The notes: generated from the letters alone by a model not told the origin. A stretch of DNA of 64,000 nt from an uncultured bacterium (GCA_963790795.1 CAWBPO010000001.1:268073-332072); one strand, 5' to 3'; positions 46,158 through 64,000 are shown, counted from the stretch's first letter. Numbers and translations are program-made.

Positions 46158-46224
46158 ATTACTCTTTACAAAAAAGTTTTTTAATGCTAAAAAGATAAAA
46201 AGAATAATTTTAACAAGATAACCG

Positions 46225-46334: not shown

Positions 46335-46343
46335 TACAGTATT

Positions 46344-46772: not shown

Positions 46773-46790
46773 TAAATTAAAACTCGGTAA

Positions 46791-47672: not shown

Positions 47673-47693
47673 AAAATAATTTGACTTTTTAGT

Positions 47694-47726
47694 AATCGGC
47701 TGCATTTTAAAGAAGCCGATTTTTAT
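47694..47726 (+). terminator. rho-independent terminator after speE
   Basis: AATCGGCT-gcattttaaaga-AGCCGATT followed by TTTTATTT. Confidence 0.65.
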
Positions 47727-47769
47727 TTACAAAATGAGGATTTTTATGTATAATTTAAAGGATATTATT

Positions 47770-50250
47770 ATGTCAATTGTTGATAAAATTTTCGGCAATG
47801 CCAACGAAAACTATTTAAAAAAGCTTGAATCTGTTGTAAAACAGATAAATTCTTTTGAAAAAGAATTCGAGGGTTTTTCTGACGAAAAATTAAAAGAAAA
47901 AACAAAAGAATTCAAAGACATATTGTGCGGAAGACAGCGCGGAGGAAAGACCTCCGTGGAAAAACAAGGAGGTCTGTCCTTAGATGATATTTTGCCGGAA
48001 GCTTTTGCCCTTGTCAGAGAGGCTGCAAAAAGAACTCTTAACCAAAGGCATTTTGATGTTCAGCTTATTGGTGGCATTGTCTTACATCAGGGGAAAATTG
48101 CTGAAATGAGAACAGGTGAGGGAAAAACTTTGGCTGCCACTCTACCTTTGTACCTTAACGCTTTAGAAGGAAAGGGCTGTCATTTGGTTACTGTTAACGA
48201 TTATTTGGCTCGCAGGGACACTGTTTGGATGGGTCAGATATATTATGCACTTGGTTTGTCAGTGGCCTGCATAGTTCATGATGCTGCTTTTATATACGAC
48301 TCAGCATACGTCGGCGAACAAAAAACAGCCAACAGTGAACAGTTAGATAAAGAGCGGGACGCTGTCGCCGGCTTTAAGGTTATTGAAAGTTATTTGAGGC
48401 CTTGTTCAAGAAAAGAAGCTTATGAAGCTGATATTACCTATGGAACCAACAATGAGTTTGGTTTTGATTATTTGCGGGACAACATGGTTTATGATTTGTC
48501 TCAGCAAACGCAGAGAGGCTTTAATTTCGCCATAGTTGATGAAGTTGATTCAATTTTGATTGATGAGGCGAGAACTCCTTTGATTATTTCAGCTCCTGAT
48601 ACGGAAAGTTCCAAATTCTATCAGGAATTTTCCAGGATTACTCCAAAGCTTGATGTTCAGGAAGATTATGAGATTGACGAGAAAATGAAAGCAGTCACCC
48701 TGACCGAAAAAGGCGTAAACAAAGTTGAAAAAATCTTAGGCCTGGAGAATATTTACGAGGAAAGGGGAATAAAGTATCTCCATTATCTTGAACAGTCATT
48801 AAGGGCTCAAACGCTTTTTAAGAAAGATAAAGATTACGTGGTAAAAGACGGCCAGGTTATTATCGTTGATGAGTTTACCGGCAGACTGATGCCCGGAAGA
48901 AGATGGTCTGGCGGCCTTCACCAGGCAGTTGAGGCGAAAGAAGGAGTTTTCGTCAATCCGGAATCTTTAACTTTAGCTTCAATCACTTTTCAGAACTATT
49001 TCAGGATGTACAAGAAACTGGCTGGTATGACAGGAACAGCAGCCACCTCAGCTGAAGAGTTTGACAAAGTATATAAATTGGAAGTGATAACTGTTCCAAC
49101 GAACAAACCGTTGCAGAGAGTTTATCTGTCAGATAGAATTTACAAAACGGAAAAAGGAAAATTTGAGGCAGTAGTCAAGGAAATAAAAGAAAAACATGAA
49201 GCTGGGCAACCGGTTTTGGTCGGTACCACTTCAATTGAGAAAAACGAGTATCTCGGCAAATTATTGGACAGAGAAGGAGTACCCCACCAGATTTTAAATG
49301 CAAAGCAGCATGAGAAAGAAGGAGAAATTATTGCCCAAGCAGGCAAATTAGGCCAAGTAACAATAGCAACCAATATGGCAGGCAGGGGAGTTGACATAGT
49401 TTTAGGAGGTAACCCGCCAGATTCTGCTCAAGCGGAAAAAGTGAAAGAATCTGGGGGATTGCACGTAATCGGCACGGAAAGGCACGAAGCAAGAAGAATT
49501 GACAATCAGTTGAGAGGTAGAACAGCCAGGCAGGGAGATTTAGGCTCTTCTCAGTTTTTCGTTTCTTTGGAAGACGATTTAATGCGTATTTTCGCTTCAG
49601 ACAAGATAAAGTCTTTAATGAATGTTTTGAAGATTCCCGAGGACCAGCCGATTGAAACAAGGATGGTTTCTGGCGCCATTGAAACAGCCCAGGCAAAGAT
49701 TGAAGGAATGAATTTTGATTTAAGAAAGCATATTTTGGAATATGACGACGTGATGAACAAGCATCGTGAGATTATTTACAAAAAAAGAAAAGAAATATTG
49801 GAAAAAGCTGAGACGGGCAGCCTTAAACCGCAGATTCTGGAAATAATCCAAAAACACGGCTGCAAAGAAGAGGATTACGAGAAAAAAGAGAAAGAAATGG
49901 GTTCGGAAAAAATGAGGCAGGTTGAAAAGATTGTTTATTTGAGGATTTTAGACACGCTCTGGCTGGAACATTTGGAAAATATGGAGCATTTGAGGGATTC
50001 TGTCAGATTAAGGGCTTACGGCCAGCAGGATCCTTTGATTGAGTACAAATCAGAAGGCCACAGGATGTTCCAGGAATTGTTAAAAAGGATTGAAGAGGGT
50101 ATTGCCAATACCATTTTAAAAGTAACTTTGGTAGAACAACCCCAACAGTCGCAGCCAGTTGAGTTTTCAAGAAGCAAAAAAAAGCCTGGCAGAAACGATC
50201 CCTGTCCATGCGGTTCTGGCAAAAAATATAAGAAATGTCACGGTCGCTGA
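47770..50250 (+). CDS. secA: preprotein translocase ATPase SecA
   Basis: ORF 47734..50250; ATG 47770 (MSIVDKIFG) matches the canonical SecA N-terminus. [53 protein letters not shown] and the C-terminal zinc motif [14 protein letters not shown]. Confidence 0.95.
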
Positions 50251-50332
50251 CGCTTCCGTTTCGTTTCTTGATTTCCACGGCGGTGCCGTAAAAATTAAAA
50301 AGTGTTGTATGCCAAAATACGACTAAAATTTT

Positions 50333-50872
50333 ATGAAAATTCTCAAGAAAAAAGTAATTTATAAAGGAAAATATTTAAAATTGATAGCAAAAGAATATTT
50401 GGTTAAAGCCGGTAAGAAAGGGGTTTGGGAATGTCTGGAGAGACCGGGAGGAGTTTTGGTTTTTGCTTTAACAAAAAGTAAAGAAGTAATTTTGGAAAAA
50501 ATTTTTAGAATTCCTATAGAATCTTACAGTATTGAACTTCCAGCCGGCACTCAAGATAAAAAAAATGAAGACCCGAAAAAAACTGCTAGAAGAGAACTTC
50601 TTGAAGAAACAGGATATTTAGCAAAAAAACTGACATTGGTCTTTAAATGTCAATTAAGCCCCTGGATTGCTTCAAGTCCAGGATTATTATTTTTTGCACC
50701 TGACGTTGAATTCGTGGGAAGAGAAGGCGGAGAAGACGCAGAAGAAATAGAGGTTATAAAAATTCCACTTAAAAATTTAGAGAAATTTTTGATAAAACAA
50801 TCAAAAAAGACACCAGTTGAGATTAGCGTCTTTGGCGCATTAGCTATTCTAAAGAAGAAAAAATTAATTTAA
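50333..50872 (+). CDS. NUDIX hydrolase (ADP-ribose pyrophosphatase-like)
   Basis: Nudix box LPAGTQDKKNEDPKKTARRELLEETGY. Confidence 0.8.
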   Translation: MKILKKKVIYKGKYLKLIAKEYLVKAGKKGVWECLERPGGVLVFALTKSKEVILEKIFRIPIESYSIELPAGTQDKKNEDPKKTARRELLEETGYLAKKLTLVFKCQLSPWIASSPGLLFFAPDVEFVGREGGEDAEEIEVIKIPLKNLEKFLIKQSKKTPVEISVFGALAILKKKKLI

Positions 50873-50873
50873 T

Positions 50874-51536
50874 ATGTTTTTCTTTCCTGTCGGTTGTTTA
50901 ATATTTATTCTTTTTATTTTATTTTTGCCTGTTTTGTTTGCTTTGGGATATTTTCACATTATTACCATCGGATTTGAGAAGCTGGGCATTTCTCCGGAAG
51001 CAGTCATATTTTTGCTTTTGGCGATTTTAATCGGTTCTGCCATCAACATTCCTTTAGGCAGAAAAAAATTAAGACATGTTGAAGAATCGAGATTTTTCGG
51101 ATTATGGCGCACTCCGAAAGTTGAAGCCCAAGGCCTTGCCATAAACGTGGGAGGAGCTGTTATTCCTGTTTTAATTTCTTTCTATTTTATATATTCCAGC
51201 TGGAACGCAGGATTTGATATAAAACAGATTTTAATTACTGCTACCTTAATGGTTTTGCTTTGCAAGTTTTTGGCTAAAGTTGTTCCTGGCGTTGGCATTT
51301 CAATGCCTGCTTTGATTCCTCCGGTATTTGCAGTTGTTTTTGCCTTGATTTTTGCCCCTGATTTTGTCGCTCCCTGCGCTTTTATTTCAGGAACTTTTGG
51401 CGTTTTAATCGGAGCTGACCTTTTGAACTTGGGAAGAATCAGAAAATACGGCGGTTTTTTGTCAATTGGCGGGGCAGGAGTGTTTGATGCTATATTTTTA
51501 GTAGGAATTATTTCCGTTCTTCTGGCTGGTTTTTAA
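50874..51536 (+). CDS. integral membrane protein, DUF1614-like (recall)
   Basis: 220 aa with ~6 TM segments. GGAVIPVLISFYF and GGAGVFDAIFLVGI motifs. Confidence 0.45.
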   Translation: MFFFPVGCLIFILFILFLPVLFALGYFHIITIGFEKLGISPEAVIFLLLAILIGSAINIPLGRKKLRHVEESRFFGLWRTPKVEAQGLAINVGGAVIPVLISFYFIYSSWNAGFDIKQILITATLMVLLCKFLAKVVPGVGISMPALIPPVFAVVFALIFAPDFVAPCAFISGTFGVLIGADLLNLGRIRKYGGFLSIGGAGVFDAIFLVGIISVLLAGF

Positions 51537-51583
51537 CGGAGAGGGCAGTTGACATTTACGGTTAAAATAATTACAATAGAAAA

Positions 51584-53053
51584 ATGTCAAAGAAAAAGCT
51601 TTATATCACCATTGTTTTTATTTTTATTCTGACTCTTTTTGCCGGAATCTTCAGTTATCCTGATTATTTCAACCGTGGAATAGATTCTTTCAATAATCTG
51701 AAAGTTTCAGTTTTTGGCTTTCAGATTCAAACGCCTCATTTTCCCAAGGCTCCTTTTGTGCTGGGGCTTGATTTACGGGGCGGAATCCAGCTGATTTATG
51801 AGGCGGATTTATCCAATATTGATGACGCGGACAAAACAGAAACAATGGAAGGATTAAGAGATGTGATTGAAAGGAGGGTGAATCTGTACGGCGTGACCGA
51901 GCCTGTTGTTCAAATACAGGGAGAAAAAAGATTAATTGTTGAACTGGCTGGCGTAAAAGACATTGGAGAGGCAATAAAAATGATAGGAGAGACCCCTTAT
52001 TTAGAATTCAGGGAAATGCTTTCTCCGGAAGAAAAAGAAGAAGCCAAAAACAGCTTTTCCGAGGAGGATATTTCGCAGATAATAAACGCTTACAAGGAGC
52101 AGACTGGCCAGGAAAAAACCAAGGATGAGATTTTGGACATGCTGACTTCTAATTTATTAAAGCCGACAGAACTGACCGGCAAATATTTGAAAAGAGCAGA
52201 CATTGCTTTTGATCCGAATACCAACAAGCCTGAGGTTTCTCTTCAATTCAAAGAAGAAGGAGAAAAATTGTTTGAAGAAATTACCGAAAGAAATGCTGGC
52301 AAGCCATTAGCTATTTTTTTGGATGACCAGTCAATCGTTGACACTGACGGTGACGGTAAAATAACAGAAAATGACCTTTATGCTCCCATTGTCCAGGAGA
52401 AAATTACCGGAGGGAAAGCAGTAATTACCGGCAATATGAACATTAACGAAGCCAAAGAGATTGTCAGAAGATTGAATTCCGGCGCTTTACCCGTTAAAAT
52501 CGGTACTCCCATTTATCAGAAATTAATTGGTCCGACATTGGGCCAGGTTTCTTTGGAAAAATCTTTAAAAGCCGGCATTTTCGGCTTTCTGGCAGTAATT
52601 TTATTCATGATAATTTTCTACCGCTTGCCGGGAATTCTCGCTTCTTTTGCTCTGGTAATTTACGCAGTTTTAGTTTTATTCCTTTTTAAGATAATTCCGG
52701 TTACTTTGACTTTGGCTGGTATTGGTGGCTTTGTCTTGTCTGTTGGTATGGCGGTTGACGCCAATATTTTGATTTTTTCCAGAATGAAGGAAGAACTGAA
52801 GCAAGGTAAAGATTTTGAACAAAGTGTAAAAGAGGGTTTTGACAGGGCCTGGCCGTCCATCAGAGACAGCAATTTCAATTCGCTTATCGTTTGCATCATT
52901 CTGTTCAGTTTCGCAACTAATTTTATAAAAGGATTCGCTTTCACTTTGAGCTTGGGAATTTTGGTTTCAATGTTTTCAGCGATTATTATTACGAGAACTT
53001 TTCTTAAATGCTTTATTAGAACAAGGCTTGAGAAAATTAAATGGCTTTGGTAA
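51584..53053 (+). CDS. secD: protein translocase subunit SecD
   Basis: LGLDLRGGIQLIYEAD, periplasmic domain, and a C-terminal 6-TM RND-like region GIGGFVLSVGMAVDANILIFSRMKEE. Confidence 0.9.
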   Translation: MSKKKLYITIVFIFILTLFAGIFSYPDYFNRGIDSFNNLKVSVFGFQIQTPHFPKAPFVLGLDLRGGIQLIYEADLSNIDDADKTETMEGLRDVIERRVNLYGVTEPVVQIQGEKRLIVELAGVKDIGEAIKMIGETPYLEFREMLSPEEKEEAKNSFSEEDISQIINAYKEQTGQEKTKDEILDMLTSNLLKPTELTGKYLKRADIAFDPNTNKPEVSLQFKEEGEKLFEEITERNAGKPLAIFLDDQSIVDTDGDGKITENDLYAPIVQEKITGGKAVITGNMNINEAKEIVRRLNSGALPVKIGTPIYQKLIGPTLGQVSLEKSLKAGIFGFLAVILFMIIFYRLPGILASFALVIYAVLVLFLFKIIPVTLTLAGIGGFVLSVGMAVDANILIFSRMKEELKQGKDFEQSVKEGFDRAWPSIRDSNFNSLIVCIILFSFATNFIKGFAFTLSLGILVSMFSAIIITRTFLKCFIRTRLEKIKWLW

Positions 53054-53056
53054 TTT

Positions 53057-53962
53057 ATGTCAATTAAATTTTTAAAATATTCAAAACTTTATTTTATTCT
53101 CTCCGGAATTTTGATTTTAGCAAGCATTGTTTCTATCTGTGTTTTCGGCTTGAAATTCGGCATAGAGTTTACCGGCGGCAGCATCATGGAGCTGTCATTT
53201 CAAGATGAGAGGCCTTCATTGGAGAATATACAGCAAAATCTTTCTCAGTTTAATCTGGGCGAAATTATCGTGCAGCCGATGGCTGACAATGAAATGATTC
53301 TGAAAATGAAAGAAATAGACGAAACGACTCACGAGAAAATTATTTTAAAATTACAAGAAGTGTCTAGTTTTGAAGAAAAGAGCTTTGAGGTGATCGGCCC
53401 GACAATCGGCACAGAATTAAAGCAAAAAACAAAAAACGCCGTAATTTTAGTATTGCTTGCCATTACCCTTTATATCACTTTCGCCTTCAGAAAGGTTTCC
53501 TGGTCGGCTATCCGCTCCTGGCAATATGGAATAGCCTCTCTTATTGCTTTGTTCCACGATGTCATAATTCCTCTTGGCGTTCTTGCCGTTTTGGGAGAAT
53601 TATATAATGTTGAGATTACCATTCCGGTTATTGCTGCTTTGTTAACCATTTTGGGCTATTCAGTTCATGACACCATAGTGATTTTTGACAGAATAAGAGA
53701 GAATCTGCTTAAGACAAAATTCAAGTCATTTGAAGAAACAGTTGACGCAAGCTTGAACCAAACTCTTCTTCGGTCAATCAGCACTGTCTTTACTGTTTTG
53801 CTCGTTCTTTTTGCCATTTTCTTTTTCGGCGGCCGGACCCTGCAGTCTTTTTCCCTTATTTTGATTATCGGAATCAGCAGCGGCGCCTATTCTTCCATCT
53901 TTGTGGCAAGCCCCATATTGGTTGCTTGGGCAAAATGGAAGCAAAATAAGGGAAAGGTTTGA
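53057..53962 (+). CDS. secF: protein translocase subunit SecF
   Basis: GIEFTGGSIMEL, LFHDVIIPLGVLAVLG and GYSVHDTIVIFDRIRENL. Confidence 0.9.
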   Translation: MSIKFLKYSKLYFILSGILILASIVSICVFGLKFGIEFTGGSIMELSFQDERPSLENIQQNLSQFNLGEIIVQPMADNEMILKMKEIDETTHEKIILKLQEVSSFEEKSFEVIGPTIGTELKQKTKNAVILVLLAITLYITFAFRKVSWSAIRSWQYGIASLIALFHDVIIPLGVLAVLGELYNVEITIPVIAALLTILGYSVHDTIVIFDRIRENLLKTKFKSFEETVDASLNQTLLRSISTVFTVLLVLFAIFFFGGRTLQSFSLILIIGISSGAYSSIFVASPILVAWAKWKQNKGKV

Positions 53963-53995
53963 CATTAATTATTAAATATTGTATAAACAAATAAC

Positions 53996-54988
53996 GTGCC
54001 TATTTTAAACATTAATTATCAACAAATTTGCGAAAAGCTTTTAAAAGCCCTGCCTCAAAAACAAAAAGAGGTTCTTTTGCGGCGTTTTGGCCTGGAGGCA
54101 AAAGGTTTGAGCAAAGGAGAAACCCTTGAAGCCATCGGCAAGAGTTTTGGCATTACCAGAGAAAGGGTCCGCCAGGTTGAAAACGACGCTTTTTCGAGAT
54201 TAAAGCCGGAAATTAAAAAATATCAAAAAGTCTTCCAGTATTTTAAAAACTTTCTTAAAAAAACAGGAAATTTAAGAAAAGAAGAGGCGCTTTTGGCTGA
54301 GCTGGCCGGCGGGAAATTTCAGAACCAGATTTATTTTTTGCTTACTTTGGCAGAAGATTTTGAAAGATTCAGCGAAACAAAAGATTTCTATTCTTTGTGG
54401 ACAACTGACCGGAAATCCTGGCTCTCAGCCCAAAAAATCATTAATGCTATTTACGAGAAATTGGAGAAAGTCGGCAAACCATTGAAATTAAAAGAAATTA
54501 ACAACCTAAACTCTTTAAAATCAGAAACCCTAAGCTCTTTCTTGGAAATTTCCAAGAAGATTCAGAGAAATAAAGAAGGGTTTTTTGGTTTGAAAGACTG
54601 GCCGGAAATTAATCCAAAAAGGATAAAAGACAAGGCCTACTTGGTTTTTAAAAAAAATCAAAAGCCCTTGCATTTTAGCCAGGTGGCCACTCTTGTCGGT
54701 CAGGCTTTGCCTCAAACCGTTCATAACGAACTGATAAAAGACCCCAGGTTTGTTCTGGTGGGAAGGGGTACTTACGCTTTAAAAGAGTGGGGATATGAAG
54801 AAGGAGTGGTTAAAGACGTTATTTTAAACATTTTAAAAACAGCTGGAAAGCCCCTTAAAAAAGAAGAAGTTTTGGCAAAGACCTTAAAACAAAGAATGGT
54901 CAAAGAAAATACCATTTTGTTGAACTTGAGCAATAAAAAATACTTCTTTAAGACCCCGGAGGGTCGTTACACAATAAGAGAAGCTTAA
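53996..54988 (+). CDS. sigma-70 region-4-like HTH protein with C-terminal HARE-HTH-like domains
   Basis: GTG start. QKEVLLRRFGL...ETLEAIGKSFGITRERVRQVENDAFSRL is region 4.2-like. C-terminal LHFSQVATLVGQ...FVLVGRGTYALKEW and VILNILKTAGKPLKKEEVLAKTL...PEGRYTIRE are RpoE-delta/HARE-HTH-like. Confidence 0.55.
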   Translation: MPILNINYQQICEKLLKALPQKQKEVLLRRFGLEAKGLSKGETLEAIGKSFGITRERVRQVENDAFSRLKPEIKKYQKVFQYFKNFLKKTGNLRKEEALLAELAGGKFQNQIYFLLTLAEDFERFSETKDFYSLWTTDRKSWLSAQKIINAIYEKLEKVGKPLKLKEINNLNSLKSETLSSFLEISKKIQRNKEGFFGLKDWPEINPKRIKDKAYLVFKKNQKPLHFSQVATLVGQALPQTVHNELIKDPRFVLVGRGTYALKEWGYEEGVVKDVILNILKTAGKPLKKEEVLAKTLKQRMVKENTILLNLSNKKYFFKTPEGRYTIREA

Positions 54989-54998
54989 ATTTTAAATT

Positions 54999-56318
54999 AT
55001 GCCAACAGTAGAAGAATCTGTTTTACTTTTAACTACCATCTGGCAGGCGATAAAGAATTGGTGGTGGGTTGTTTTACCTTTAATTTTTTGGAAGCCGTTT
55101 TCCTTCCTTTATTTATGGTGGAGAATGGAACTTTTTTTCGGCAAACAGCGCATGGTTGTTCTTGAGATTAAACTGCCAAAGAAACTGTCAAAACCGATAA
55201 GGGCAATGGAAGTTGTGCTTTCAAGCTTGCATGCGACAATTTATCAGCCGCCTGATTTGTGGGAAAAATGGGTAGACGGTCAGATTCAGCTTTCTTTGGG
55301 GCTTGAAATCGTTTCAATTGACGGAGAGTCGCATTTTTTTGTCAGAACGCCAGTACAATACAGGGATGCGGTAGAATCAAGCTTTTACGCGCAGTATCCT
55401 GAAATTGAAATTATTGAAGCTGACGACTATACAAAGTATATTCCTCAAAGCATTCCCAACAAAGATTGGGATATGTTCGGCTGCGATTACAAATTGGCAA
55501 AAGACGACCATTATCCGATTAAAACATATACTGAATTTGAAACTGAACAAGAGAAAACAGAAGAAAAAAAGATTGATCCGATTGCCGGGCTTTTGGAAGC
55601 AATGGCTAAGATTAAAAAAGGAGAACAGCTTTGGATTCAGCTTTTGATTGAGCCGGTCGGCGATGCAGATTTAGAGTTGTCTTTCAGCAAATGGAAGCAG
55701 AAAGGCGAAGTATTAAGAGATAAATTAGCCAGAAGGGAAGTTCCTAAGGTTTCAAAACCAATGCTTCAAGAAGCAACAGAAATATTAATATCAGGAGTAC
55801 CGGCTGAAGAAAAGAAGGAGGGAAAAGAAATTTTTCCTCCTGAAATGAAATTAACTCCGGGAGAAAGAGAGATTTTAGCGGCAATAGAGAAGAAAATGTC
55901 AAAGCCCATTTTCAACGTTACAGGCAGATTCATTTATCTTGGCAAGAGAGATGTTTGGTTCAAGCCCAATTTCAGATTGGCTTTTTCTTTTTTCAACGAA
56001 TATACGACAAACAATCTTAATGCTTTGTTCCCCGAGGGTAAAACCCTGACCAAGATTAAAAAAGCTTTGATTTTTCAATTTCTCAATCTTAAGTTCATAT
56101 ATAGCAGAAGGCATTATTTGAGATGCCGAAGATTGTTCAGAAATTACATTAGAAGACTTTCTCCTTTTTTTCCTCGTTCAGAAGGGACTTACATGTTAAG
56201 CACGGAAGAGATTGCTTCTCTTTTCCATTTCCCAAGCGAGGAAACAGCTCCTGCTCCTGGAGTAGCCAGAATAGAATCAAGAAAAGGAGTTGTTCCGCCT
56301 TCTTTGCCCACGGAATAA
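54999..56318 (+). CDS. membrane-anchored protein of unknown function, partner of the downstream VirD4/TraD-like ATPase
   Basis: N-terminal TM pair (WWVVLPLIFWKPFSFLYLWW). VVLEIKLPKK...AMEVVLSSLH. C-terminal LSTEEIASLFHFPS. The stop lies 18 nt before the ATPase start. Confidence 0.45.
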   Translation: MPTVEESVLLLTTIWQAIKNWWWVVLPLIFWKPFSFLYLWWRMELFFGKQRMVVLEIKLPKKLSKPIRAMEVVLSSLHATIYQPPDLWEKWVDGQIQLSLGLEIVSIDGESHFFVRTPVQYRDAVESSFYAQYPEIEIIEADDYTKYIPQSIPNKDWDMFGCDYKLAKDDHYPIKTYTEFETEQEKTEEKKIDPIAGLLEAMAKIKKGEQLWIQLLIEPVGDADLELSFSKWKQKGEVLRDKLARREVPKVSKPMLQEATEILISGVPAEEKKEGKEIFPPEMKLTPGEREILAAIEKKMSKPIFNVTGRFIYLGKRDVWFKPNFRLAFSFFNEYTTNNLNALFPEGKTLTKIKKALIFQFLNLKFIYSRRHYLRCRRLFRNYIRRLSPFFPRSEGTYMLSTEEIASLFHFPSEETAPAPGVARIESRKGVVPPSLPTE

Positions 56319-56335
56319 TGTGATAACAATTAAAT

Positions 56336-58009
56336 ATGACCAACGAAGAAATCAATTTTTTTGCTGTAACCACTTTTAGAAACCAAAGGAAAAAATTCGG
56401 GATTAAAACCGATGACAGGCGTCGGCATGTTTATGTTATCGGTAAAACAGGCATGGGTAAAACTTTGATGTTGAGGAATATGGCCCTTCAGGACATCCAG
56501 CAGGGCAAAGGAATCGGTTTCATTGATCCGCACGGCGAGGCAGCTGAAGAATTATTGGACTGTATTCCTTCAAACAGGGTTAACGACGTAATCTATTTTA
56601 ATCCGGCTGACATTGATTATCCGATTGCTTTCAACATTATGGAAAGTGTTGGCGTGGAACACCGGCATTTGGTCGCTTCTGGCTTGATGGGCGTTTTTAA
56701 GAAAATCTGGCCTGATGTTTGGTCAGCTAGAATGGAATACATTTTGAACAATTCAATTTTAGCTCTTTTGGAATATCCAGGAGCCACTCTTTTGGGCGTT
56801 AACAGAATGCTGGCTGATCCTGAATACCGGAAAAAAGTGGTTGAAAAAGTGATGGATCCGGTGGTTAAATCTTTCTGGACCCAGGAATTCGCCAGATACG
56901 CCCAGAGATACGAGGTGGAAGCAACTGCGGCCATACAGAACAAAATTGGCCAGTTCATCTCCAATCCTTTAATCAGGAACATTATCGGCCAGGTAAGGTC
57001 CAGCATTAATATGAGGAATATTATGGATGAAAAGAAGATTTTTATAATGAATATATCAAAAGGAAGAGTGGGAGAAGACAATTCCAGGCTGCTTGGCGCT
57101 CTTTTAATCACCAAGCTTCAGCTGGCAGCCATGTCCAGAGTGGATGTTCCTGAAGAAAAAAGAAATGATTTTTTCCTTTATGTTGACGAATTCCAGAACT
57201 TTGCCACAGAATCATTCACCAATATTTTGTCTGAAGCGAGAAAATACAGGCTGGCTTTGCTTTTGGGGCATCAGTATATTGCCCAGATGGATGAAACGGT
57301 CAGAGACGCGGTTTTCGGCAACGTTGGCACAATTGTCTCTTTCAGAGTCGGAGCGGAAGACGCAGAATATTTGGAAAAAGAATTCGCTCCTGATTTTACT
57401 GCTGAAGACTTGGTCAATTTGCCGAAATACAACGTTTATTTGAAATTGATGATTGATGGGGTTGCCGGTCCTGCTTTTTCGGCAGAAACTTTGTCTCCTT
57501 TACCGGCCCTTGAAAAATCAAACCAGGAAAAAATCATTAAAGTTTCAAGAGAGAGATACAGCACTCCGAGAAAAGTTATTGAAGAAAAAATTGCCAAGTG
57601 GACAGGAATGTTAAATGTTGCGGAAACTCCGATGCAGCCATCTTCCCAGCCCTTGTATGACGCCAAATGCGCTTTGTGCGGCAAATGGACAAAAGTGATT
57701 TTTGAGCCGACTGCTTCCCGTCCCGTTTATTGCAAAACCTGCTTGAAAAAAGTTAAAAAACCTTCTGCTGAAAGGGAAAAACCAGTTTTGCCGGCCAACG
57801 AGCCAGAAAAGAGAAAAGAAGAAAGACCAAGGGTTTCTCTCCAAGAAGCAGTTGGCAAAACGCCTGTTTCTTTTTCTAGCAGAACAACAACTGGAAAAGA
57901 AGAAAAAAGGAAGCCAAGAAAAGAAGTTAATTTGGAAGAATTAAAAAAAACATTAGAAGAATCTTTAAAAGATGTAGAAAAAAAAGATGAAGGGGCTGGG
58001 GGACTTTAA
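56336..58009 (+). CDS. FtsK/HerA/TraD-superfamily P-loop ATPase (type IV coupling-protein-like) with C-terminal CxxC...CxxC zinc ribbon and K/E-rich tail
   Basis: Walker A HVYVIGKTGMGKT, Walker B FFLYVDEFQNFAT, ARKYRLALLLGHQY. Zinc ribbon CALCGKWTKVIFEPTASRPVYCKTC. Confidence 0.7.
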   Translation: MTNEEINFFAVTTFRNQRKKFGIKTDDRRRHVYVIGKTGMGKTLMLRNMALQDIQQGKGIGFIDPHGEAAEELLDCIPSNRVNDVIYFNPADIDYPIAFNIMESVGVEHRHLVASGLMGVFKKIWPDVWSARMEYILNNSILALLEYPGATLLGVNRMLADPEYRKKVVEKVMDPVVKSFWTQEFARYAQRYEVEATAAIQNKIGQFISNPLIRNIIGQVRSSINMRNIMDEKKIFIMNISKGRVGEDNSRLLGALLITKLQLAAMSRVDVPEEKRNDFFLYVDEFQNFATESFTNILSEARKYRLALLLGHQYIAQMDETVRDAVFGNVGTIVSFRVGAEDAEYLEKEFAPDFTAEDLVNLPKYNVYLKLMIDGVAGPAFSAETLSPLPALEKSNQEKIIKVSRERYSTPRKVIEEKIAKWTGMLNVAETPMQPSSQPLYDAKCALCGKWTKVIFEPTASRPVYCKTCLKKVKKPSAEREKPVLPANEPEKRKEERPRVSLQEAVGKTPVSFSSRTTTGKEEKRKPRKEVNLEELKKTLEESLKDVEKKDEGAGGL

Positions 58010-59021
58010 TTTTAAAAATAAAAGAGTTTTGCTCCGATGCGATTTTGACGTTCCTGTGGCAAACGGAGTTATTCTGGACGATTTCAGAATTAAAAAAGCT
58101 TTGCCGACCATACAATATTTGGTTGGAAAGGGAGCTAAACTCATTTTAATGGCTCACTTGGACAGGCCTGAAGGGAAAACAGTTGAAGAACTGAAATTGA
58201 CTCTGGTTCAAAAAAAGTTATCGGAGTATTTGAGTTTATCCGTAATCCAAGCTCAAGACTGCGCAGGTTCTCAGGTTGACAAGCTGGTCAATGAATTGAA
58301 GCCAGGCGAAATATTGCTTTTGGAAAATTTAAGATTCCGCAAAGAAGAAGAGGAAAATGACGATAATTTTTCCAGGAATTTGGCAAAGCTGGGAGATGTA
58401 TATATTAACGACGCTTTTGCCAATTCGCACAGAAACCATGCTTCAATTGTTGGCCTGCCAAAATATCTGCCTTCTGCTGCAGGGATGTTGTTTAAAGAAG
58501 AAGTTGATGCTTTGAGTAGGATAAAAGACAATCCTGAAAGGCCTTTAGTTGCTATTATCGGCGGAGAAAAAGTGGAAACAAAAATGGAATTGGTTGATAA
58601 GATTTCCGAGAATGCTGATTTTGTTCTTATCGGCGGATTGATAAAAGAAGCAATGCAAAAAAACAATATTCAGCTGAAAAATTACCAGAAAATTGTTGAA
58701 CCCGTTAATGATGTCGGCAAAAAAGATATCGGTCCTGAAACCATCAGTCTTTTCAAGGAAAAAATACATTCAGCTAAAACTGTTTTTTGGAACGGTCCTT
58801 TGGGCCAGACCGAAGAAAAAGAATTTACTGTTGGGACCGAAGAAATTGCCAGGGCGATTGTTCAAAGCAAAGCGTTTTCCGTTGTCGGAGGTAGCAATAC
58901 AGTAGAGTTTTTAAGCAAAATCGGCTTGATTGATAAGTTTAGTCATATTTCCACTGGCGGAGGAGCGATGATAGCTTTTTTGAGCGGAGAGAAACTTCCT
59001 GGAATAGAAGCGTTGAGGTAA
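57987..59021 (+). CDS. pgk: phosphoglycerate kinase (compact, 344 aa)
   Basis: KRVLLRCDFDVPV, LILMAHLDRPEG, LLENLRFRKEEE, NDAFANSHRNHAS, FWNGPLGQTEE and HISTGGGAMIAFLSGEKLPGIEAL. Confidence 0.85.
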   Translation: MKGLGDFNFKNKRVLLRCDFDVPVANGVILDDFRIKKALPTIQYLVGKGAKLILMAHLDRPEGKTVEELKLTLVQKKLSEYLSLSVIQAQDCAGSQVDKLVNELKPGEILLLENLRFRKEEEENDDNFSRNLAKLGDVYINDAFANSHRNHASIVGLPKYLPSAAGMLFKEEVDALSRIKDNPERPLVAIIGGEKVETKMELVDKISENADFVLIGGLIKEAMQKNNIQLKNYQKIVEPVNDVGKKDIGPETISLFKEKIHSAKTVFWNGPLGQTEEKEFTVGTEEIARAIVQSKAFSVVGGSNTVEFLSKIGLIDKFSHISTGGGAMIAFLSGEKLPGIEALR

Positions 59022-59165
59022 AAAAAACCGGGGAAACCGAATGAGTCGAAAGAAATAAGCTATGGAGCAAATGAATAACGCATAATAGCCTATCTCACAT
59101 TCGGTTTCCCCGTATGAGGAAAACAGGTACTTCACCCGCTGAACCCCCAAACAGAAAAGTACTAT
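59021..59165 (-). ncRNA. candidate ~145-nt small RNA of unknown class, bounded by its own promoter and intrinsic terminator
   Basis: Minus-strand promoter at 59199..59172. Extended hairpin CGGGGAAACCGAATG (59029..59043) / CATTCGGTTTCCCCG (59098..59112), plus an inner 9-bp stem that needs a G.U pair only on the minus-strand RNA. The minus-strand hairpin is followed by a U9 run (plus-strand A-run 59020..59028). Confidence 0.45.
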
Positions 59166-59171
59166 ATTATA

Positions 59172-59199
59172 ATTATACTCTTTTTAAATAATTTGTCAA
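59172..59199 (-). promoter_or_regulatory. consensus sigma-70 promoter on the minus strand (TTGACA-16 nt-TATAAT)
   Basis: The reverse complement of 59172..59199 reads TTGACAAATTATTTAAAAAGAGTATAAT. Confidence 0.55.
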
Positions 59200-59200
59200 G

Positions 59201-60385
59201 ATGCAAGAAATCAATCCTTCGACTTCGTTCAGGATTAATGGTGAGCGTAGTCGAACCATCAAGAACTTAAAGAAGGCAGCCAGCCGCATTTTAAAAGCAA
59301 TTCAAAAAAAAGAGAGAATTATTCTTTACGGAGATGCTGATTTAGACGGCACAACATCGGTCATTATCTTAAAAGAAACCATCAAGACTTTGGGCGGAAA
59401 TATTTCAGCTTTTTATTTCCCGGATAGAGAAACTGAAGGTTACGGCCTCACTGAAAAAGGCCTTGATTTTTTGAAAAAGGAATCTCCCGCCTTAATAATC
59501 GTTTTGGACTGCGGTATAGGTAACTTGAAGGAAGTGAAATTGGCGAAAAAAATTGGTTTCAAGGTTATTATTGTTGACCATCATGAAACTTTGGACAAAT
59601 TGCCTGAAGCTGAAATAATAGTTGACCCAAAGCAAAAAAGCGACAAATATCCTTTTAAAAAATTAGCTTGTGTCGGGATAGCTTTCAAGCTTTCGGAAGC
59701 CATACTTGGCAAGAAAATGACAGAAAGCCTAAGAAGGAACTTTTTAGAGATGACAGCCATTGCCACTGTCGCTGATATGATGCCGAAAGAATCGGAAAAC
59801 AAGATTTTTATTGAACAGGGACTTTCTTATTTGGAAAGCTCTTGGAGGCCAGGCATCAGAGCTTTTTTGGAATCGTTTAAAGAGTATTCGGACATCAATC
59901 AAAAAGTTTCCAAAATCATTTCAATTTTGAACATTAGGGACGTAAAAGAAAGTCTTCCAGCCAGCTTCAGACTGTTGACATGTTCTTCTCTAGAGAAAGC
60001 AGAGAAAATTATCGGGGAATTGTTGGAAAAATCAGAAGTGAGGAGAGAAAAAATGGAAGAAATGATGGCTGAAGTGGAAAAAAGATTAACGGAAAAAGAA
60101 GAATCGATAATTTTTGAAGGCGATACAATCTTTGAATTGACGCTTATCAGCTCAATTGCTTCGATACTCTGCCGCAAATATCTCAAGCCAGTTTTCCTTT
60201 ATAAAAAGATGGAAAAAGAAAGCCAGGGCACGGTCAGAACGCCAAAAGAAACAAACGGAGTTTCTTTGATGAGGAATTGTTCAGAGCTTTTGCTGACTTT
60301 TGGCGGACATGCTCAGGCAGCCGGTTTCAGGGTAAAAAATGAAAACTTGGAAAAATTTAAAAGTTGTTTAATTAGAAATATATGA
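59201..60385 (+). CDS. DHH/DHHA1 phosphoesterase, RecJ-core-like single-stranded-DNA exonuclease or nanoRNase
   Basis: DHH motifs ILYGDADLDGTTS, VLDCG and IIVDHH. DHHA1 motif FGGHAQAAGF. Shorter (394 aa) than canonical RecJ. Confidence 0.7.
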   Translation: MQEINPSTSFRINGERSRTIKNLKKAASRILKAIQKKERIILYGDADLDGTTSVIILKETIKTLGGNISAFYFPDRETEGYGLTEKGLDFLKKESPALIIVLDCGIGNLKEVKLAKKIGFKVIIVDHHETLDKLPEAEIIVDPKQKSDKYPFKKLACVGIAFKLSEAILGKKMTESLRRNFLEMTAIATVADMMPKESENKIFIEQGLSYLESSWRPGIRAFLESFKEYSDINQKVSKIISILNIRDVKESLPASFRLLTCSSLEKAEKIIGELLEKSEVRREKMEEMMAEVEKRLTEKEESIIFEGDTIFELTLISSIASILCRKYLKPVFLYKKMEKESQGTVRTPKETNGVSLMRNCSELLLTFGGHAQAAGFRVKNENLEKFKSCLIRNI

Positions 60386-60402
60386 ACCTTTGATATTCTT
60401 CT

Positions 60403-60825
60403 ATGAAAAAAATTGTCATTTATACTGACGGCGGTTCAAGAGGGAACCCCGGGCCATCAGCCATAGGAGTTGTTTTTTGCAACGAGAAAGGCCAGTATTT
60501 TAAAAAATATTCAGAGTATCTGGGCGATGATTTGACCAATAACGAAGCTGAATATCAGGCAGTGGTTTTCGCTTTGCAGAAATTCAGGGCTCTTTTCGGC
60601 AAAAAACTGGCAAAAAGCAGCGATGTTGAGATTAAATCTGATTCAGAGTTGATGATTAAACAATTAAAGGGGGAGTACAAGGTTTTAGAGCCGAATATTC
60701 AAACTCTCTTTTTAAAGGTTTGGAATTTAAAAATTGATTTTAAAAAGATAAAATTTTCTCTTATACCCAGAGAAAAAAACAAAGAGGCGGATGCTTTGGC
60801 CAATATGGCTTTGGACCAGAGATGA
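60403..60825 (+). CDS. ribonuclease HI-family protein
   Basis: IVIYTDGGSRGNPGPSAIGVVF, TNNEAEYQAVVFAL, KSDSELMIKQL and NKEADALAN, giving the D-E-D-D catalytic pattern. Confidence 0.8.
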   Translation: MKKIVIYTDGGSRGNPGPSAIGVVFCNEKGQYFKKYSEYLGDDLTNNEAEYQAVVFALQKFRALFGKKLAKSSDVEIKSDSELMIKQLKGEYKVLEPNIQTLFLKVWNLKIDFKKIKFSLIPREKNKEADALANMALDQR

Positions 60826-60829
60826 ATCA

Positions 60830-60855
60830 AAAAATCCGTTAATTAACGGATTTTT
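60830..60855. terminator. bidirectional terminator shared by the RNase HI gene (+) and rnpB (-)
   Basis: Perfect palindrome AAAAATCCGTTAATTAACGGATTTTT with A/T runs on both sides. Confidence 0.65.
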
Positions 60856-60861
60856 AAATAT

Positions 60862-61250
60862 CCCAGCAAGCTCGTAAGCCGAATTCTGTTTTAAGCGATC
60901 ATCTGTCTGGGCCCTTGATTGCTCTCAGGCTCGAGCGAACTACTTTTCACCCCTATAAGATAGTGATTTATCTCATTGGGATTTGTTCTTGCACCCAGTA
61001 AGGATTTAGCCGTTTCACCCCTGCATTGCTGCAGGACTTTCCCGTGGTTTTACGGGCTGCTCAACCTTTCGGTTCAGCTCGTCTCTGTTCGCACCTCTCC
61101 GAGCACATAATCAAATTATGTGCTGCGGGACGGCTGTTAGCCGCTACTTTTTTATCGAGCACATAATTTAATTATGTGCTACGAGAGTGTTCGGACTTTC
61201 CTCTGAACATATAAAGTTTTATAGGTTCAGCGATCACTCGGCTTGCTAGG
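60862..61250 (-). ncRNA. rnpB: RNase P RNA (bacterial type)
   Basis: Minus strand carries CR-I GAGGAAAGUCCGAAC (complement of 61189..61205) and CR-V ACAGAAUUCGGCUUACG (complement of 60873..60890). P1 forms between CCUAGCAAGCCGAG (5') and CGAGCUUGCUGGG (3'). GGGGUGAAA motifs are present. Length ~390 nt. Confidence 0.85.
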
Positions 61251-61315
61251 ATATTATAATTCTAGCAGAATTGAAAACTTTGTCAAATCTGAAAATTGAG
61301 GTAAAATAATTCATA

Positions 61316-62956
61316 ATGTTTAAAAAATTGTTTAAGTCGCAAACTAAAACCTTGACTTTCGCCGCCATTTTATTAGGAGCGTCGGCTTTGGTCAGCCGGC
61401 TTTTGGGATTGATTAGGGACCGCTTGCTGGCTGGAACCTTCGGAGCAGGAGAAGAACTTGATATTTATTTTGCCGCTTTCAGGATTCCTGACTTTGTTTA
61501 CGGAATTCTGATTACTGGCGGTATTGCCGCTGTTTTTCTTCCTGTTTTTTCGGAATACTTTAAGAAAAACGAGGAAGAGGCCTGGCAATTTTCCAGCAAT
61601 CTTTTCAATTGTTTTTTGATTCTGCTTGTTTTTCTTTGCGCCATTTTGGCTGTTTTTACGCCTTGGCTTATTGATTTGATTGCTCCGGGATTTTCTTTTA
61701 CCAGTAAGAACTTGGCTGTTGCTTTGACCAGGATAATGTTTATTTCTCCTGTGTTTTTCGGCTTGGCCAGTATTTTTTCAGGAGTGCTTCATTATTTCAA
61801 CCGGTTTCTGGTTTACTCTCTAGCTCCTGTCATATATAATCTTGGCATAATATTCGGTATTTTGTTTTTGGTGCCCAGATTCGGCCTTTATGGATTGGCT
61901 TATGGAGTTATCTTGGGAGCTTTATTTTATTGGCTGATTCAGGTGCCGGCAGCCAAGGATTCAGGATACAAGTATCTGGCTTTTTTTGATTTTAAAAATT
62001 CAGGATTGATTAAGGTTTTCAAACTGATGGTTCCCAGGACAATCGGAGCGGCTGCCTATCATATCAATTTAATAGTCATTACTGCCATTGCTTCAACGCT
62101 GGCTGCCGGTTCCATCGCCATTTTTAACTTTGCCAACAATCTTCAGTATTTCCCGATCGGCCTTATCGGAATTTCTTTTTCAGTGGCTGCTTTTCCTTTG
62201 TTGTCCAAGAATTGGGCTTTTGATTTGAAAGAAGAGTTTTTTAAAGTTTTTTCTTCAACTTTCCGCCAGATTCTTTTTCTAATAATTCCAATCTCTCTTT
62301 TGGTTTTCATATTCAGGAGCGAAATCGTTCGAATTGTTCTGCAAACAGGTCAATTCGGCGGTTTTGAGACAAGATTGACTTCAGCCTGTCTTGGTATTTT
62401 TTGTTTGAGCATTGCCGCTTTTTCCTTTGTTCCTTTCCTGGCCCGCGTTTTCTATTCTTTCCAGGATACAAAAACTCCGGTGCTCATCGGCTTGGCTTCC
62501 ATGGCTTTTAACATTGCTCTTTGTTATTTTTTCAACTTTATTCTGGGATTTTCAAACTTTTTCCAGCAATTTATGGTAAACATATTGGGACTTCAGCGGA
62601 TTGAAGATGTCAGGGTGATCGGTCTGCCTTTGGCCTTGTCTGTTTCCGGCATTTTCCAGTTTTTTTTCCTTTTGTTTTTTCTTAAAAGAAAGCTCAATGG
62701 TTTGGTTAACGGAGAAATCTTGCAGTCTTTCTGGAAAATTGCAATATCAAGCGTTTTAATGTCTGTTTTTGTCTGCCTGTCTTTTTCTTTTATCGGTGCT
62801 TTTTTTGATTTTCAAACTGATTTCAGCGTTTTGATTCAAACAACAATAGCTGTTATTATCGGCGCTGTCGTCTATATCTTTATTAATATTTTGCTCAAAT
62901 CTCCAGAAGTTAAAACTATTTGGTCTGCGATAGAAGAGCAGTTCAAAAGAAATTAA
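61316..62956 (+). CDS. murJ: lipid II flippase MurJ (MviN)
   Basis: LGASALVSRLLGLIRDRLLAGTFGAGEELDIYFAAFRIPDFVYGIL, and 14 TM segments. Confidence 0.85.
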   Translation: MFKKLFKSQTKTLTFAAILLGASALVSRLLGLIRDRLLAGTFGAGEELDIYFAAFRIPDFVYGILITGGIAAVFLPVFSEYFKKNEEEAWQFSSNLFNCFLILLVFLCAILAVFTPWLIDLIAPGFSFTSKNLAVALTRIMFISPVFFGLASIFSGVLHYFNRFLVYSLAPVIYNLGIIFGILFLVPRFGLYGLAYGVILGALFYWLIQVPAAKDSGYKYLAFFDFKNSGLIKVFKLMVPRTIGAAAYHINLIVITAIASTLAAGSIAIFNFANNLQYFPIGLIGISFSVAAFPLLSKNWAFDLKEEFFKVFSSTFRQILFLIIPISLLVFIFRSEIVRIVLQTGQFGGFETRLTSACLGIFCLSIAAFSFVPFLARVFYSFQDTKTPVLIGLASMAFNIALCYFFNFILGFSNFFQQFMVNILGLQRIEDVRVIGLPLALSVSGIFQFFFLLFFLKRKLNGLVNGEILQSFWKIAISSVLMSVFVCLSFSFIGAFFDFQTDFSVLIQTTIAVIIGAVVYIFINILLKSPEVKTIWSAIEEQFKRN

Positions 62957-64000
62957 TGGAAAATATACGCAACTTCTGCATAATTAGTCATGTTGACCAT
63001 GGTAAATCAACTTTGGCTGACAGGTTTCTTGAATTGACAAACACAGTTCCCAAAGCAAAGATGAGGGAGCAGTTTTTGGATTCAATGGACTTGGAGAGGG
63101 GAAGAGGTATTACCATTAAAATGCATCCTGTCAGAATGGAGTATGTTCTTGATTCAAAGCCATATATCTTGAATTTGATAGACACGCCAGGCCACATTGA
63201 TTTCAATTACGAGGTTTCAAGAAGCTTGGCAGCGGTTGAAGGCGCTATTTTATTGGTTGACGCAACCAAAGGCGTTCAGGCTCAGACAATACACAATCTG
63301 GAATTAGCAAAAAAGCAGGGTTTAATAATCATTCCGGCAGTCAATAAAATTGATTCGCCTCAGGCAAGAATTGAAGAGGCAAAAGTTTCTCTGGCGCAAC
63401 TGCTGGAAATATCGGAAAATGAAGTTTTTCTTATTTCAGCTAAAAAGGGGACAAACGTTAAAGAACTTTTAGAAACTGTAATCAGGAAGCTTTCTTCTCC
63501 TCAGGGAGATGTTGATAATCCTTTTCGGGCTTTGATTTTTGATTCCAAATACGACCCATATAAAGGAATTGTCGCTTATTTGAGAGTTCTTGACGGTAAA
63601 ATATCAGCCAATGAAAAGATATATTTGATTCAAAGCAAGGTTAAAGGCGAAGTTAAGGAACTTGGCTATTTTAAGCCTGAGTTTTCTCCGGTGAAAGAAT
63701 TAAAAAGCGGAGAAATAGGTTATTTGGCTACTGGAATCAAGGAGCCCGGCAAAGTAAGAGTGGGAGACACAATTTCAAACATTTTTAATATTAAGCCTTT
63801 GCCAGGATACAAAGAGCCAAAGCCTGTTGTTTTCGCTTCCTTCTATCCTGAGAATCCTGATGTTTTTGACAATTTGAAAGAAGCTTTGTCCAAATTAAAG
63901 CTTAACGATTCTTCTTTCACTTTTGAGCCGGAAACAAAGGAAGCTTTGGGCAGGGGGTTCAGCTGCGGATTCTTGGGCTCTTTGCACGTTGAAATCGTTT
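62956..64000 (+). CDS. lepA: translation elongation factor 4 (LepA), N-terminal ~348 aa; continues past the right edge
   Basis: ATG 62956 overlaps the murJ stop (TAATG). MENIRNFCIISHVDHGKSTLADRFLE...LDSMDLERGRGITIK...NLIDTPGHIDF...NKIDSP. Absent from the ORF track because no stop lies in the window. Confidence 0.9.
   Translation, partial: MENIRNFCIISHVDHGKSTLADRFLELTNTVPKAKMREQFLDSMDLERGRGITIKMHPVRMEYVLDSKPYILNLIDTPGHIDFNYEVSRSLAAVEGAILLVDATKGVQAQTIHNLELAKKQGLIIIPAVNKIDSPQARIEEAKVSLAQLLEISENEVFLISAKKGTNVKELLETVIRKLSSPQGDVDNPFRALIFDSKYDPYKGIVAYLRVLDGKISANEKIYLIQSKVKGEVKELGYFKPEFSPVKELKSGEIGYLATGIKEPGKVRVGDTISNIFNIKPLPGYKEPKPVVFASFYPENPDVFDNLKEALSKLKLNDSSFTFEPETKEALGRGFSCGFLGSLHVEIV

Follow-up and report, generated by a model that had tools for sequence, protein, structure and literature searches.

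A conserved gene pair of Paceibacteria corresponds to a DUF8128-type type IV coupling protein split into two halves

The closest described relatives of the gene pair reported here are the type IV coupling proteins (T4CPs) that belong to type IV secretion systems (T4SSs). This pair lies on the plus strand of a 64,000-nucleotide (nt) stretch of DNA from an uncultured bacterium (GCA_963790795.1, CAWBPO010000001.1:268073-332072), called the window below, and encodes a putative membrane protein of 439 amino acids (aa), the partner, followed by a soluble ATPase. Canonical T4CPs such as TrwB (R388), VirD4, Cag-beta and DotL share with this ATPase the P-loop nucleotide-binding domain (NBD), the Walker A and B motifs, the inserted all-alpha domain (AAD) and the TraG-D_C region. 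They carry, however, a two-helix N-terminal transmembrane domain (TMD) in the same chain and no DUF8128 domain, and their similarity to the ATPase is marginal (29 bits for TrwB). T4CPs that lack a TMD and stand next to a membrane protein form a recognised subfamily, including TraJ/TraI of pIP501 and the TraG-TraJ pairs (PMC7434980). By their description, these pairs resemble ours in that the gene of a soluble coupling ATPase adjoins that of a presumed membrane tether. The TraJ-like tethers are small, measuring about 200 aa and having at most five helices (PMC7434980), whereas the partner described here has a single presumed anchor and, unlike those tethers, a large cytoplasmic DUF8128 domain corresponding to the N-terminal half of a T4CP.

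The fused DUF8128 T4CPs, which are proteins of about 800 aa in Streptomycetaceae and an 870-aa 'DUF87' protein in Peribacillus, have in common with the pair the DUF8128 domain, a seam of the form ELAxLxHxP, a TrwB-like NBD/AAD and a single N-terminal anchor helix. They are made as one polypeptide. Their genes lie on plasmids or in regions resembling integrative and conjugative elements, where the neighbours encode PrgI, a VirB4-like ATPase and a cell-wall hydrolase and include a relaxase-like gene. The pair, in contrast, consists of two genes, has a zinc-finger tail and no T4SS or relaxase neighbours, and sits in a fixed block of housekeeping genes. In Patescibacteria, orphan VirD4-type homologues lying away from virB4 are already known from a survey by Quinonero-Coronel et al. 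published in 2025 (PMC12102498), and the T4CP homologues counted there are very probably the same gene set as the ATPase studied here. The split, the DUF8128 half, the zinc-finger tail, the secDF/pgk synteny and the level of conservation were not found in the accessible part of that paper.

The pair had been described earlier from the DNA alone (the sequence-only reading) as a stand-alone VirD4/TraD-like ATPase with a dedicated membrane partner and a zinc-ribbon tail. Both open reading frames (ORFs) were confirmed and are listed in Table 1 together with the other features of the locus. The two genes, the Walker motifs and the housekeeping flanks were all as described; the spacer between the genes, given as 18 nt, measured 17 nt.

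A search with the ATPase returned at least 8000 proteins at E ≤ 0.001, of which the best 120 were 70-100% identical, and tblastn against plasmids found ATPase homologues on 383 records. On a linear plasmid of Embleya, the ATPase matched a protein of 812 aa in its C-terminal half; the annotation of this protein reads 'type IV secretory system conjugative DNA transfer family protein'. The gene for this T4CP belongs to the cluster of a monoderm T4SS, which also encodes a PrgI-family protein, an ATP-binding protein, a replication-relaxation protein and an NlpC/P60 protein. The N-terminal half of the Embleya protein contains LSVPELAALAHLP..DAPGLTRAGARSVVPP directly before the ATPase domain, and its counterpart in the partner is LSTEEIASLFHFPS..APAPGVARIESRKGVVPP. 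The partner itself gave no match in tblastn against plasmids; the fused relatives were reached via the ATPase.

Both PF26449 (DUF8128) and PF10412 were present in a single chain in 118 of the 120 Streptomycetaceae homologues of about 800 aa. The profiles were compared with hhalign, the partner profile being an alignment of 125 diverse sequences. The partner (aa 33-439, profile columns 46-435) aligned to residues 66-393 of the fused Streptomycetaceae T4CPs with a probability of 97% and an E value of 9.8e-11, and the ATPase (aa 17-387, profile columns 21-391) aligned to residues 408-780 of the same T4CPs with a probability of 100% and an E value of 7.6e-50. The two alignments were colinear and adjacent, with a linker of about 14 residues between them. 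Deep alignments on both sides were needed for this, and a shallow partner alignment compared with the single Embleya sequence gave a probability of 12%. Of the plasmid-borne Peribacillus T4CP (870 aa), aa 54-316 were matched by the hidden Markov model (HMM) of the partner (E = 1e-26) and aa 330-759 by that of the ATPase (E = 1.3e-45); the neighbours of this gene are replication-relaxation, conjugal-transfer and TcpE genes.

As the profile alignments are colinear and adjacent, PF26449 and PF10412 occur in one chain and the Peribacillus protein has the same layout, the pair was shown, on the grounds of homology, to correspond to one monoderm DUF8128-type T4CP that is divided between two genes at the linker joining its domains. 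The supposed dedicated membrane partner is thus the N-terminal half of the T4CP itself; in conjugative T4CPs of Actinobacteria and Firmicutes, this half and the ATPase form one chain. The pair is therefore one split protein rather than a novel two-component system.

A relative was present in at least 567 species-representative genomes, and the best 80 loci (63-87% identical) were analysed. The DUF8128 gene lay directly upstream of the ATPase gene in 77 of the 80 loci, and in all 77 the two halves were separate ORFs on the same strand. The halves stood in relative frames 0, 1 and 2 in 30, 20 and 27 loci, respectively, and the first aligned codon of the ATPase lay at a median distance of 20 nt from the stop codon of the partner. 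The use of three relative frames rules out a sequencing frameshift and indicates many independent changes of the spacer since the split. The pair was also split in the Colwellbacteria-like loci, where the partner was about 30%, SecD 45% and the ATPase 62% identical. There, the order secD, secF, the gene for a protein with sigma-70 region 4 and HARE-HTH domains (sigma-r4/HARE-HTH), partner and ATPase was intact, efp occupied the place of pgk, and the ATPase had no zinc finger. Since the halves are separate in 77 of 77 loci and also in the Colwellbacteria-like loci with their 30%-identical partner, the split is, judging from these comparisons, ancient.

Among the three loci without an adjacent DUF8128 gene, two had no room for it on the contig. 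The third (L013, 661..2148) carried neither the helix-turn-helix (HTH) gene nor the DUF8128 gene despite upstream room, indicating that the DUF8128 half is elsewhere or missing there. The upstream gene at this locus is ftsZ with long lysine-rich N- and C-terminal extensions.

The place of the split is marked by a conserved seam. In the partner, the motif LSTEEIASLFHFPS (aa 400-413) is followed by a proline-rich tail, and positions E403, E404, H410, P412, P418, P420, R424, K428, L436 and P437 are invariant or nearly so. A further partner motif, VVLEIKLPKK, is found at aa 53-62. The seam segments, namely the partner tail from P418 to P437 and ATPase residues 6-31, are highly conserved and yet have a low predicted local distance difference test (pLDDT) score in isolation, which is below 50 in the partner tail.

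The DUF8128 label (PF26449, PF26449.1) was precomputed for an identical database protein (P0121) and for most homologues, and the family, which has 1606 cluster representatives at 50% identity, bears the name DUF8128 in UniRef. The Pfam, NCBIfam and PADLOC scans of the partner itself gave no match; the assignment rests on the precomputed labels and the profile comparison. A literature search found no mention of DUF8128. The presumed anchor is the sole hydrophobic window of the partner, and its Kyte-Doolittle score of 1.25 over 19 residues makes it a weak transmembrane call. The AlphaFold2 (AF2) model has helices near the N-terminus at residues 4-29 and 31-49, and the fused Embleya T4CP has one clear transmembrane segment (aa 34-56) at the position equivalent to the partner anchor.

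The AF2 model of the partner reached a pLDDT of 78.8 and a predicted template modelling (TM) score of 0.77. A Foldseek comparison, which the sequence-only reading had proposed as a check, was run with both proteins: the ATPase led to Cag-beta, TrwB and DotL, and the top 14 Protein Data Bank (PDB) matches of the partner were all TrwK/VirB4 of R388 (E = 7.6e-5, probability 1.0, TM score of about 0.35). The PDB sequence search with the partner profile returned one meaningless match and no sequence support for VirB4. The likeness between the partner and the N-domain of VirB4/TrwK thus concerns the fold, at a TM score of 0.35, and hints that DUF8128 may have a fold like that of the VirB4 N-terminal domain.

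These fold matches would also suit a split VirB4-like assembly ATPase, comparable to CedB/CedD or to TrsD with VirB4, in place of a coupling protein. Separate VirB4-N-domain-like proteins have been reported in Patescibacteria and Sulfolobales, and in TrsD and in CedB/CedD of Sulfolobales the N-domain-like parts of T4SS ATPases are encoded by separate genes, as here. The ATPase of our pair is, however, T4CP-like. Its fold matched TrwB and Cag-beta at E values of about 1e-5, whereas TrwK ranked 39th with an E value of 0.027. The CagE_TrbE_VirB family gave no match, and NF045975 alone responded (E = 0.0036), with 15.1 bits against a cut-off of 590 bits. The full-length relatives, moreover, are T4CPs, and the cluster in which they lie encodes the VirB4-like ATPase as a further protein. 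We therefore consider a split VirB4 very improbable. The CedD model (NF053655), which was followed as a lead, covered only the P-loop, with 27.5 bits against a cut-off of 600 bits, and was dropped.

The ATPase was matched in Pfam by PF10412 (TrwB_AAD_bind, E = 2.2e-10) over aa 25-332, by PF12696 (TraG-D_C, 22.6 bits) and by PF23477. In NCBIfam, the matches to the TraD, VirD4 and CedD P-loop models were all below threshold, and TIGR04272 was matched as well. The FtsK_SpoIIIE family was absent from both the Pfam and the NCBIfam matches. The best PDB sequence matches were TrwB (E = 3.6e-6) and DotL. Over 34 orthologues, by which the invariance of the motifs was judged, positions G36, K37, T38, G39, G41 and K42 of Walker A were invariant. 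The AF2 model of the ATPase was poor, as its alignment was shallow and its sequences too similar, and it was used for ranking the fold matches: with its confident part, HerA and VirB4 ranked behind Cag-beta, TrwB and DotL. The segment from aa 107 to 214, which lies between the two Walker motifs, was all-helical with block-mean pLDDT values of about 70-85, which lends moderate support to a predicted all-alpha domain. The ATPase begins where the soluble domain of TrwB begins, and the absence of any hydrophobic segment in it means that there is no N-terminal anchor in the same chain. By these family and fold matches, the ATPase is a VirD4/TrwB-type coupling P-loop protein, as the sequence-only reading had proposed, and it did not group with a non-translocase family.

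The same superfamily of FtsK/HerA/VirD4-type ATPases includes mad8 and HerA, and the ATPase was indeed matched by the PADLOC mad8 model (E = 9.7e-15) and weakly by HerA. Together with a Bradyrhizobium relative lying among CHAT and tetratricopeptide repeat (TPR) genes, this would fit an anti-phage defence ATPase similar to mad8 of MADS or to HerA. However, MADS is an eight-gene operon, and no methyltransferase, nuclease or other mad gene stands beside the pair, which is found without MADS or HerA partner genes and in a core-genome context. Universal, syntenic and vertically inherited genes that experience strong purifying selection do not resemble defence islands, and the T4CP structures ranked above HerA in the fold search. 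The mad8 reading was rejected on gene context, and a role in defence is highly improbable.

Two further plasmid-borne homologues were noted. On plasmid NZ_CP081110.1 of Sulfitobacter mediterraneus (L081, 7953..9140), a stand-alone 395-aa homologue is 41% identical to the Candidate Phyla Radiation (CPR) ATPase (E = 6e-90), and no conjugative T4CP comes nearly as close. This homologue lacks an N-domain, a partner gene and a finger. It adjoins transposases, and the plasmid is non-mobilisable; horizontal transfer may have brought it there. On plasmid p131_1 of Bradyrhizobium sp. 131 (L083, 7059..9185), a 708-aa T4CP-like protein has an N-terminal extension not matching DUF8128; it lies amid CHAT-domain and TPR genes with no T4SS and could belong to a conflict system.

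The C-terminal region of the ATPase carries a zinc finger, which scored 4.5e-12 with PF23477 and 4.4e-12 with TIGR04272 and in which all four cysteines are invariant. The CxxC-x17-CxxC motif occurs once in the window. This domain binds zinc in small proteins of Methanosarcina (PMC12704099). The finger was present in 80 of the 80 loci and missing in the Colwellbacteria-like orthologues and is thus lineage-specific. The tail that follows contains 21 lysine or arginine and 18 aspartate or glutamate residues in its 83 positions, has an AF2 helix at residues 533-551 and is conserved at S501, F513, R528, K529, V531, E535, L536, L540 and L544. The zinc-ribbon and basic tail of the sequence-only reading was therefore correct as to the finger and not as to the charge, which is mixed.

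The gene order secD, secF, sigma-r4/HARE-HTH, partner, ATPase, pgk, recJ-like, rnhA was retained across the 80 species-level genomes. The chromosomal, housekeeping-embedded setting that had been noted for this window thus extends to all 80 loci. By median identity, the ATPase (69.5%) stood before SecA (67%), SecD/F (54%), Pgk (48.5%) and the partner (47%). SecD, SecF, Pgk, MurJ and the RecJ-like protein were less conserved than the ATPase in every locus. The ATPase matches SecA in its conservation, and no other gene of the block is conserved more strongly. The sigma-r4/HARE-HTH gene was found upstream of the pair in 75 of the 80 loci and in all three distant loci (L088-L090), even where secDF was not adjacent. 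Its product might serve the split T4CP as an accessory that binds DNA, or the gene could merely be part of a retained gene order.

A T4CP gene may also be a remnant or a part of an integrated conjugative or mobilisable element, as an ordinary T4CP of mobile DNA. The nearest fused relatives do lie in conjugative clusters, and the ATPase has the plasmid homologues mentioned above. Against this, the pair has the same housekeeping neighbours on either side in 80 species-level genomes, and the order secD, secF, sigma-r4/HARE-HTH is kept in the three distant ones. No integrase, relaxase or mating-pair formation family was found among the scanned ORFs of the window or the tracked genes of the loci, the composition around the pair shows no break, and the partner has no plasmid match. 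The mobile-element reading is refuted by this synteny, and we give it next to no weight. The pair lies outside any conjugative element found here, and the block of secDF, sigma-r4/HARE-HTH, partner and ATPase is inherited vertically in the core genome of Paceibacteria/Parcubacteria.

In the window, the genes upstream of the pair are secA, a Nudix gene, a membrane protein gene, secD and secF, followed by the sigma-r4/HARE-HTH gene, which ends 10 nt 5' of the partner gene and whose product has sigma-70 region 4 at aa 15-70 and HARE-HTH at aa 212-265. Downstream lie pgk, the recJ-like gene, rnhA and murJ. The ATPase gene and pgk overlap by 23 nt at 57987..58009, that is, at the ATPase stop region and the pgk start. 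The promoter and terminator scans gave counts at chance level and nothing convincing from secD to pgk; the sole strong promoter-like site was found just 5' of secD (51549..51577). This lone site and the overlap with pgk suggest one long transcript.

Nearly all sizeable ORFs of the window (1..64000) are on the plus strand, and the cumulative GC skew climbs nearly continuously, with 2 of 32 2-kb windows negative. Both are consistent with strong co-orientation of genes and replication on one replichore. The family scan covered the ten largest other ORFs, which encode polysaccharide, cell-envelope and radical-SAM proteins, and the neighbourhood of the pair, which is part of the ORFs present. Two paralogues of 726-749 aa with Wzy_C (O-antigen-ligase-like) and TPR domains (4378..6627 and 42585..44765) flank a large glycan-biosynthesis cluster (12000..45000) that includes a flippase, an aminotransferase, an epimerase, a nucleotidyl transferase and a B12/radical-SAM enzyme.

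Table 1. Features of the split coupling protein locus, in positions of the window
Feature	Position	Strand	Remarks
Sigma-70 region 4 + HARE-HTH gene	53996..54988	+	330 aa; PF04545 4.6e-13, PF05066 2.7e-8
DUF8128 (PF26449) gene, T4CP N-terminal half	54999..56318	+	Predicted membrane tether and cytoplasmic alpha/beta domain
Trp-rich hydrophobic segment WWWVVLPLIFWKPFSFLYLWW	55059..55121	+	aa 21-41; presumed single membrane anchor
Conserved seam LSTEEIASLFHFPS, then tail ..APAPGVARIESRKGVVPPSLPTE	56196..56315	+	From conservation and alignment to fused T4CP
Spacer at the split point	56319..56335	.	17 nt
TrwB/VirD4-type ATPase gene, T4CP C-terminal half	56336..58009	+	557 aa; NBD, all-alpha domain and zinc-finger tail
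Walker A GKTGMGKT	56441..56464	+	aa 36-43; aligns to the TrwB P-loop
Walker B LYVDEF	57176..57193	+	aa 281-286; six of six positions invariant; aligns to TrwB LWLFIDEL
CxxC-x17-CxxC treble-clef zinc finger CALCGKWTKVIFEPTASRPVYCKTC	57668..57742	+	aa 445-469
Mixed-charge K/E-rich tail	57758..58006	+	aa 475-557; ends in a conserved amphipathic helix

For the working of the split T4CP, we propose the following scheme. The first gene would supply a short membrane anchor and a cytoplasmic N-domain with the predicted VirB4-N-terminal-domain-like fold, and the second would supply the nucleotide-binding and all-alpha motor domains and, in this lineage, the zinc-finger and charged tail. The halves would re-associate at the seam, through the conserved tail of the partner and the conserved N-terminus of the ATPase. 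By analogy with TrwB, the motor is expected to be a hexamer, so that an ATP-driven ring would be tethered to the membrane by one anchor helix in each subunit. The DUF8128 domain would face the cytoplasm, in the same one-segment topology as in the fused Embleya protein. The C-terminal extension may be a docking site for a substrate or an adaptor; in other T4CPs, C-terminal extensions serve as receptors (TraD-TraM, DotL). The C-terminal domains of T4CPs are covered in a review of these proteins (PMC7434980). The split pair has left any mobile element and is inherited vertically with the core genome.

The most likely outlet for such a protein would be the VirB4-type T4SS, which most Patescibacteria encode at another place on the chromosome. 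According to the 2025 survey, VirB4 is present in 2,417 of 3,035 Patescibacteria genomes (80%), in vertically inherited systems of monoderm ancestry (PMC12102498). The fused relatives of the pair are genuine T4SS components. Six genomes in Table S3 of the survey could be matched to the loci analysed here, and of these, three that carry the pair were VirB4-positive (L018, L052 and L059). The term stand-alone thus holds for the neighbourhood, in the window and in the 80 loci, and not genome-wide, as VirB4 occurs in half of the matched genomes and in most of those surveyed. We rate a split coupling protein with the patescibacterial T4SS as its outlet as about as probable as all the alternatives together.

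Several observations weigh against this outlet and against the coupling-protein scheme built on it. Of the ten largest other ORFs in the window, none matched a T4SS, relaxase or pilin family, and no such genes were found within 10 kb in the 80 loci. VirB4 was not detected in the other three matched genomes (L022, L028 and L073), although these are draft metagenome-assembled genomes (MAGs) and thus soft evidence. The AF2 model of the ATPase has a pLDDT of 60, and the VirB4-like fold of DUF8128 is a weak point, coming from one Foldseek run with its TM score of 0.35. The re-association of the halves, the hexamer and the identity of the substrate are all inferred. Conservation at the level of SecA is, in our judgement, unusual for a T4CP. 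In the survey, T4CP homologues are reported in 2,918 of 3,035 genomes (96%), which exceeds the number for VirB4, and only 148 of them lie near virB4 (PMC12102498). In Candidatus Southlakia epibionticum, the T4SS is reported to be essential and the t4cp homologue, a putative counterpart of our pair, to be non-essential; the authors regard the exaptation of T4CP homologues as possible (PMC12102498).

Many of these points suit the same split T4CP in an exapted role, as a core-genome motor for nucleic acids that is anchored in the membrane and works without a T4SS. Such a motor might take up scavenged DNA or handle it, perhaps at ComEC, or serve another DNA or RNA transaction, with the sigma-r4/HARE-HTH protein as a nucleic-acid adaptor. 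It would agree with the housekeeping synteny together with the SecA-level conservation, with the pair in genomes without detected VirB4, with the larger share of genomes that have a T4CP, and with the dispensable t4cp homologue beside an essential T4SS, as reported (PMC12102498). The HTH gene stays directly upstream even without adjacent secDF or pgk, although adjacency in the tightly packed CPR genomes is weak functional evidence. ComEC-like genes about 4 kb downstream of the ATPase gene in L090 would also fit; in the window, no ComEC was noticed, the family scans having covered part of its ORFs.

An exapted motor would still require a channel, and one anchor helix per subunit is unlikely to form one for macromolecules. 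The VirB4 absences, as mentioned above, come from draft MAGs. For a putative nucleic-acid motor, it is further unfavourable that the tail is not basic and that the finger is missing in some lineages. We regard exaptation as a serious but less probable reading. A more specific form of it, in which a Paceibacteria ancestor captured a conjugative T4CP and split it, and the product became a T4SS-free nucleic-acid motor that acts with the sigma-r4/HARE-HTH adaptor on scavenged host DNA in organisms unable to make nucleotides, seems to us unlikely.

As separate observations on L090, the ATPase orthologue (9308..10795) has 495 aa with the charged tail only, and the ComEC-like genes (14827..16906) encode the membrane and the metallo-beta-lactamase domains as two ORFs.

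Much of bacterial diversity belongs to the Patescibacteria, which rely on host cells for their building blocks. Their T4SS is the first to be reported as essential for the bacterium that carries it. The split coupling protein is not a new class of system. In the literature searched, the DUF8128 identity of the partner, the ancient and fixed split and the block of secDF, HTH gene and pgk around the pair were absent and appear to be new. The same appears to apply to the SecA-rivalling conservation, the CxxC-x17-CxxC finger added in one large lineage and the predicted VirB4-N-domain-like fold of DUF8128.

For the family, these results mean that the widespread 'orphan' T4CP homologue is very probably a split DUF8128-type coupling protein, encoded as a pair in hundreds of species-level genomes. 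DUF8128 is given a role as the N-terminal domain of monoderm T4CPs and is possibly a homologue of the VirB4 N-domain, a likeness that bears on the relationship between T4CPs and VirB4. The assignment is useful for annotation and for the design of experiments on the T4SS of CPR bacteria: whether the pair feeds the T4SS or works independently of it is now directly testable, and the defined seam offers a handle for this.

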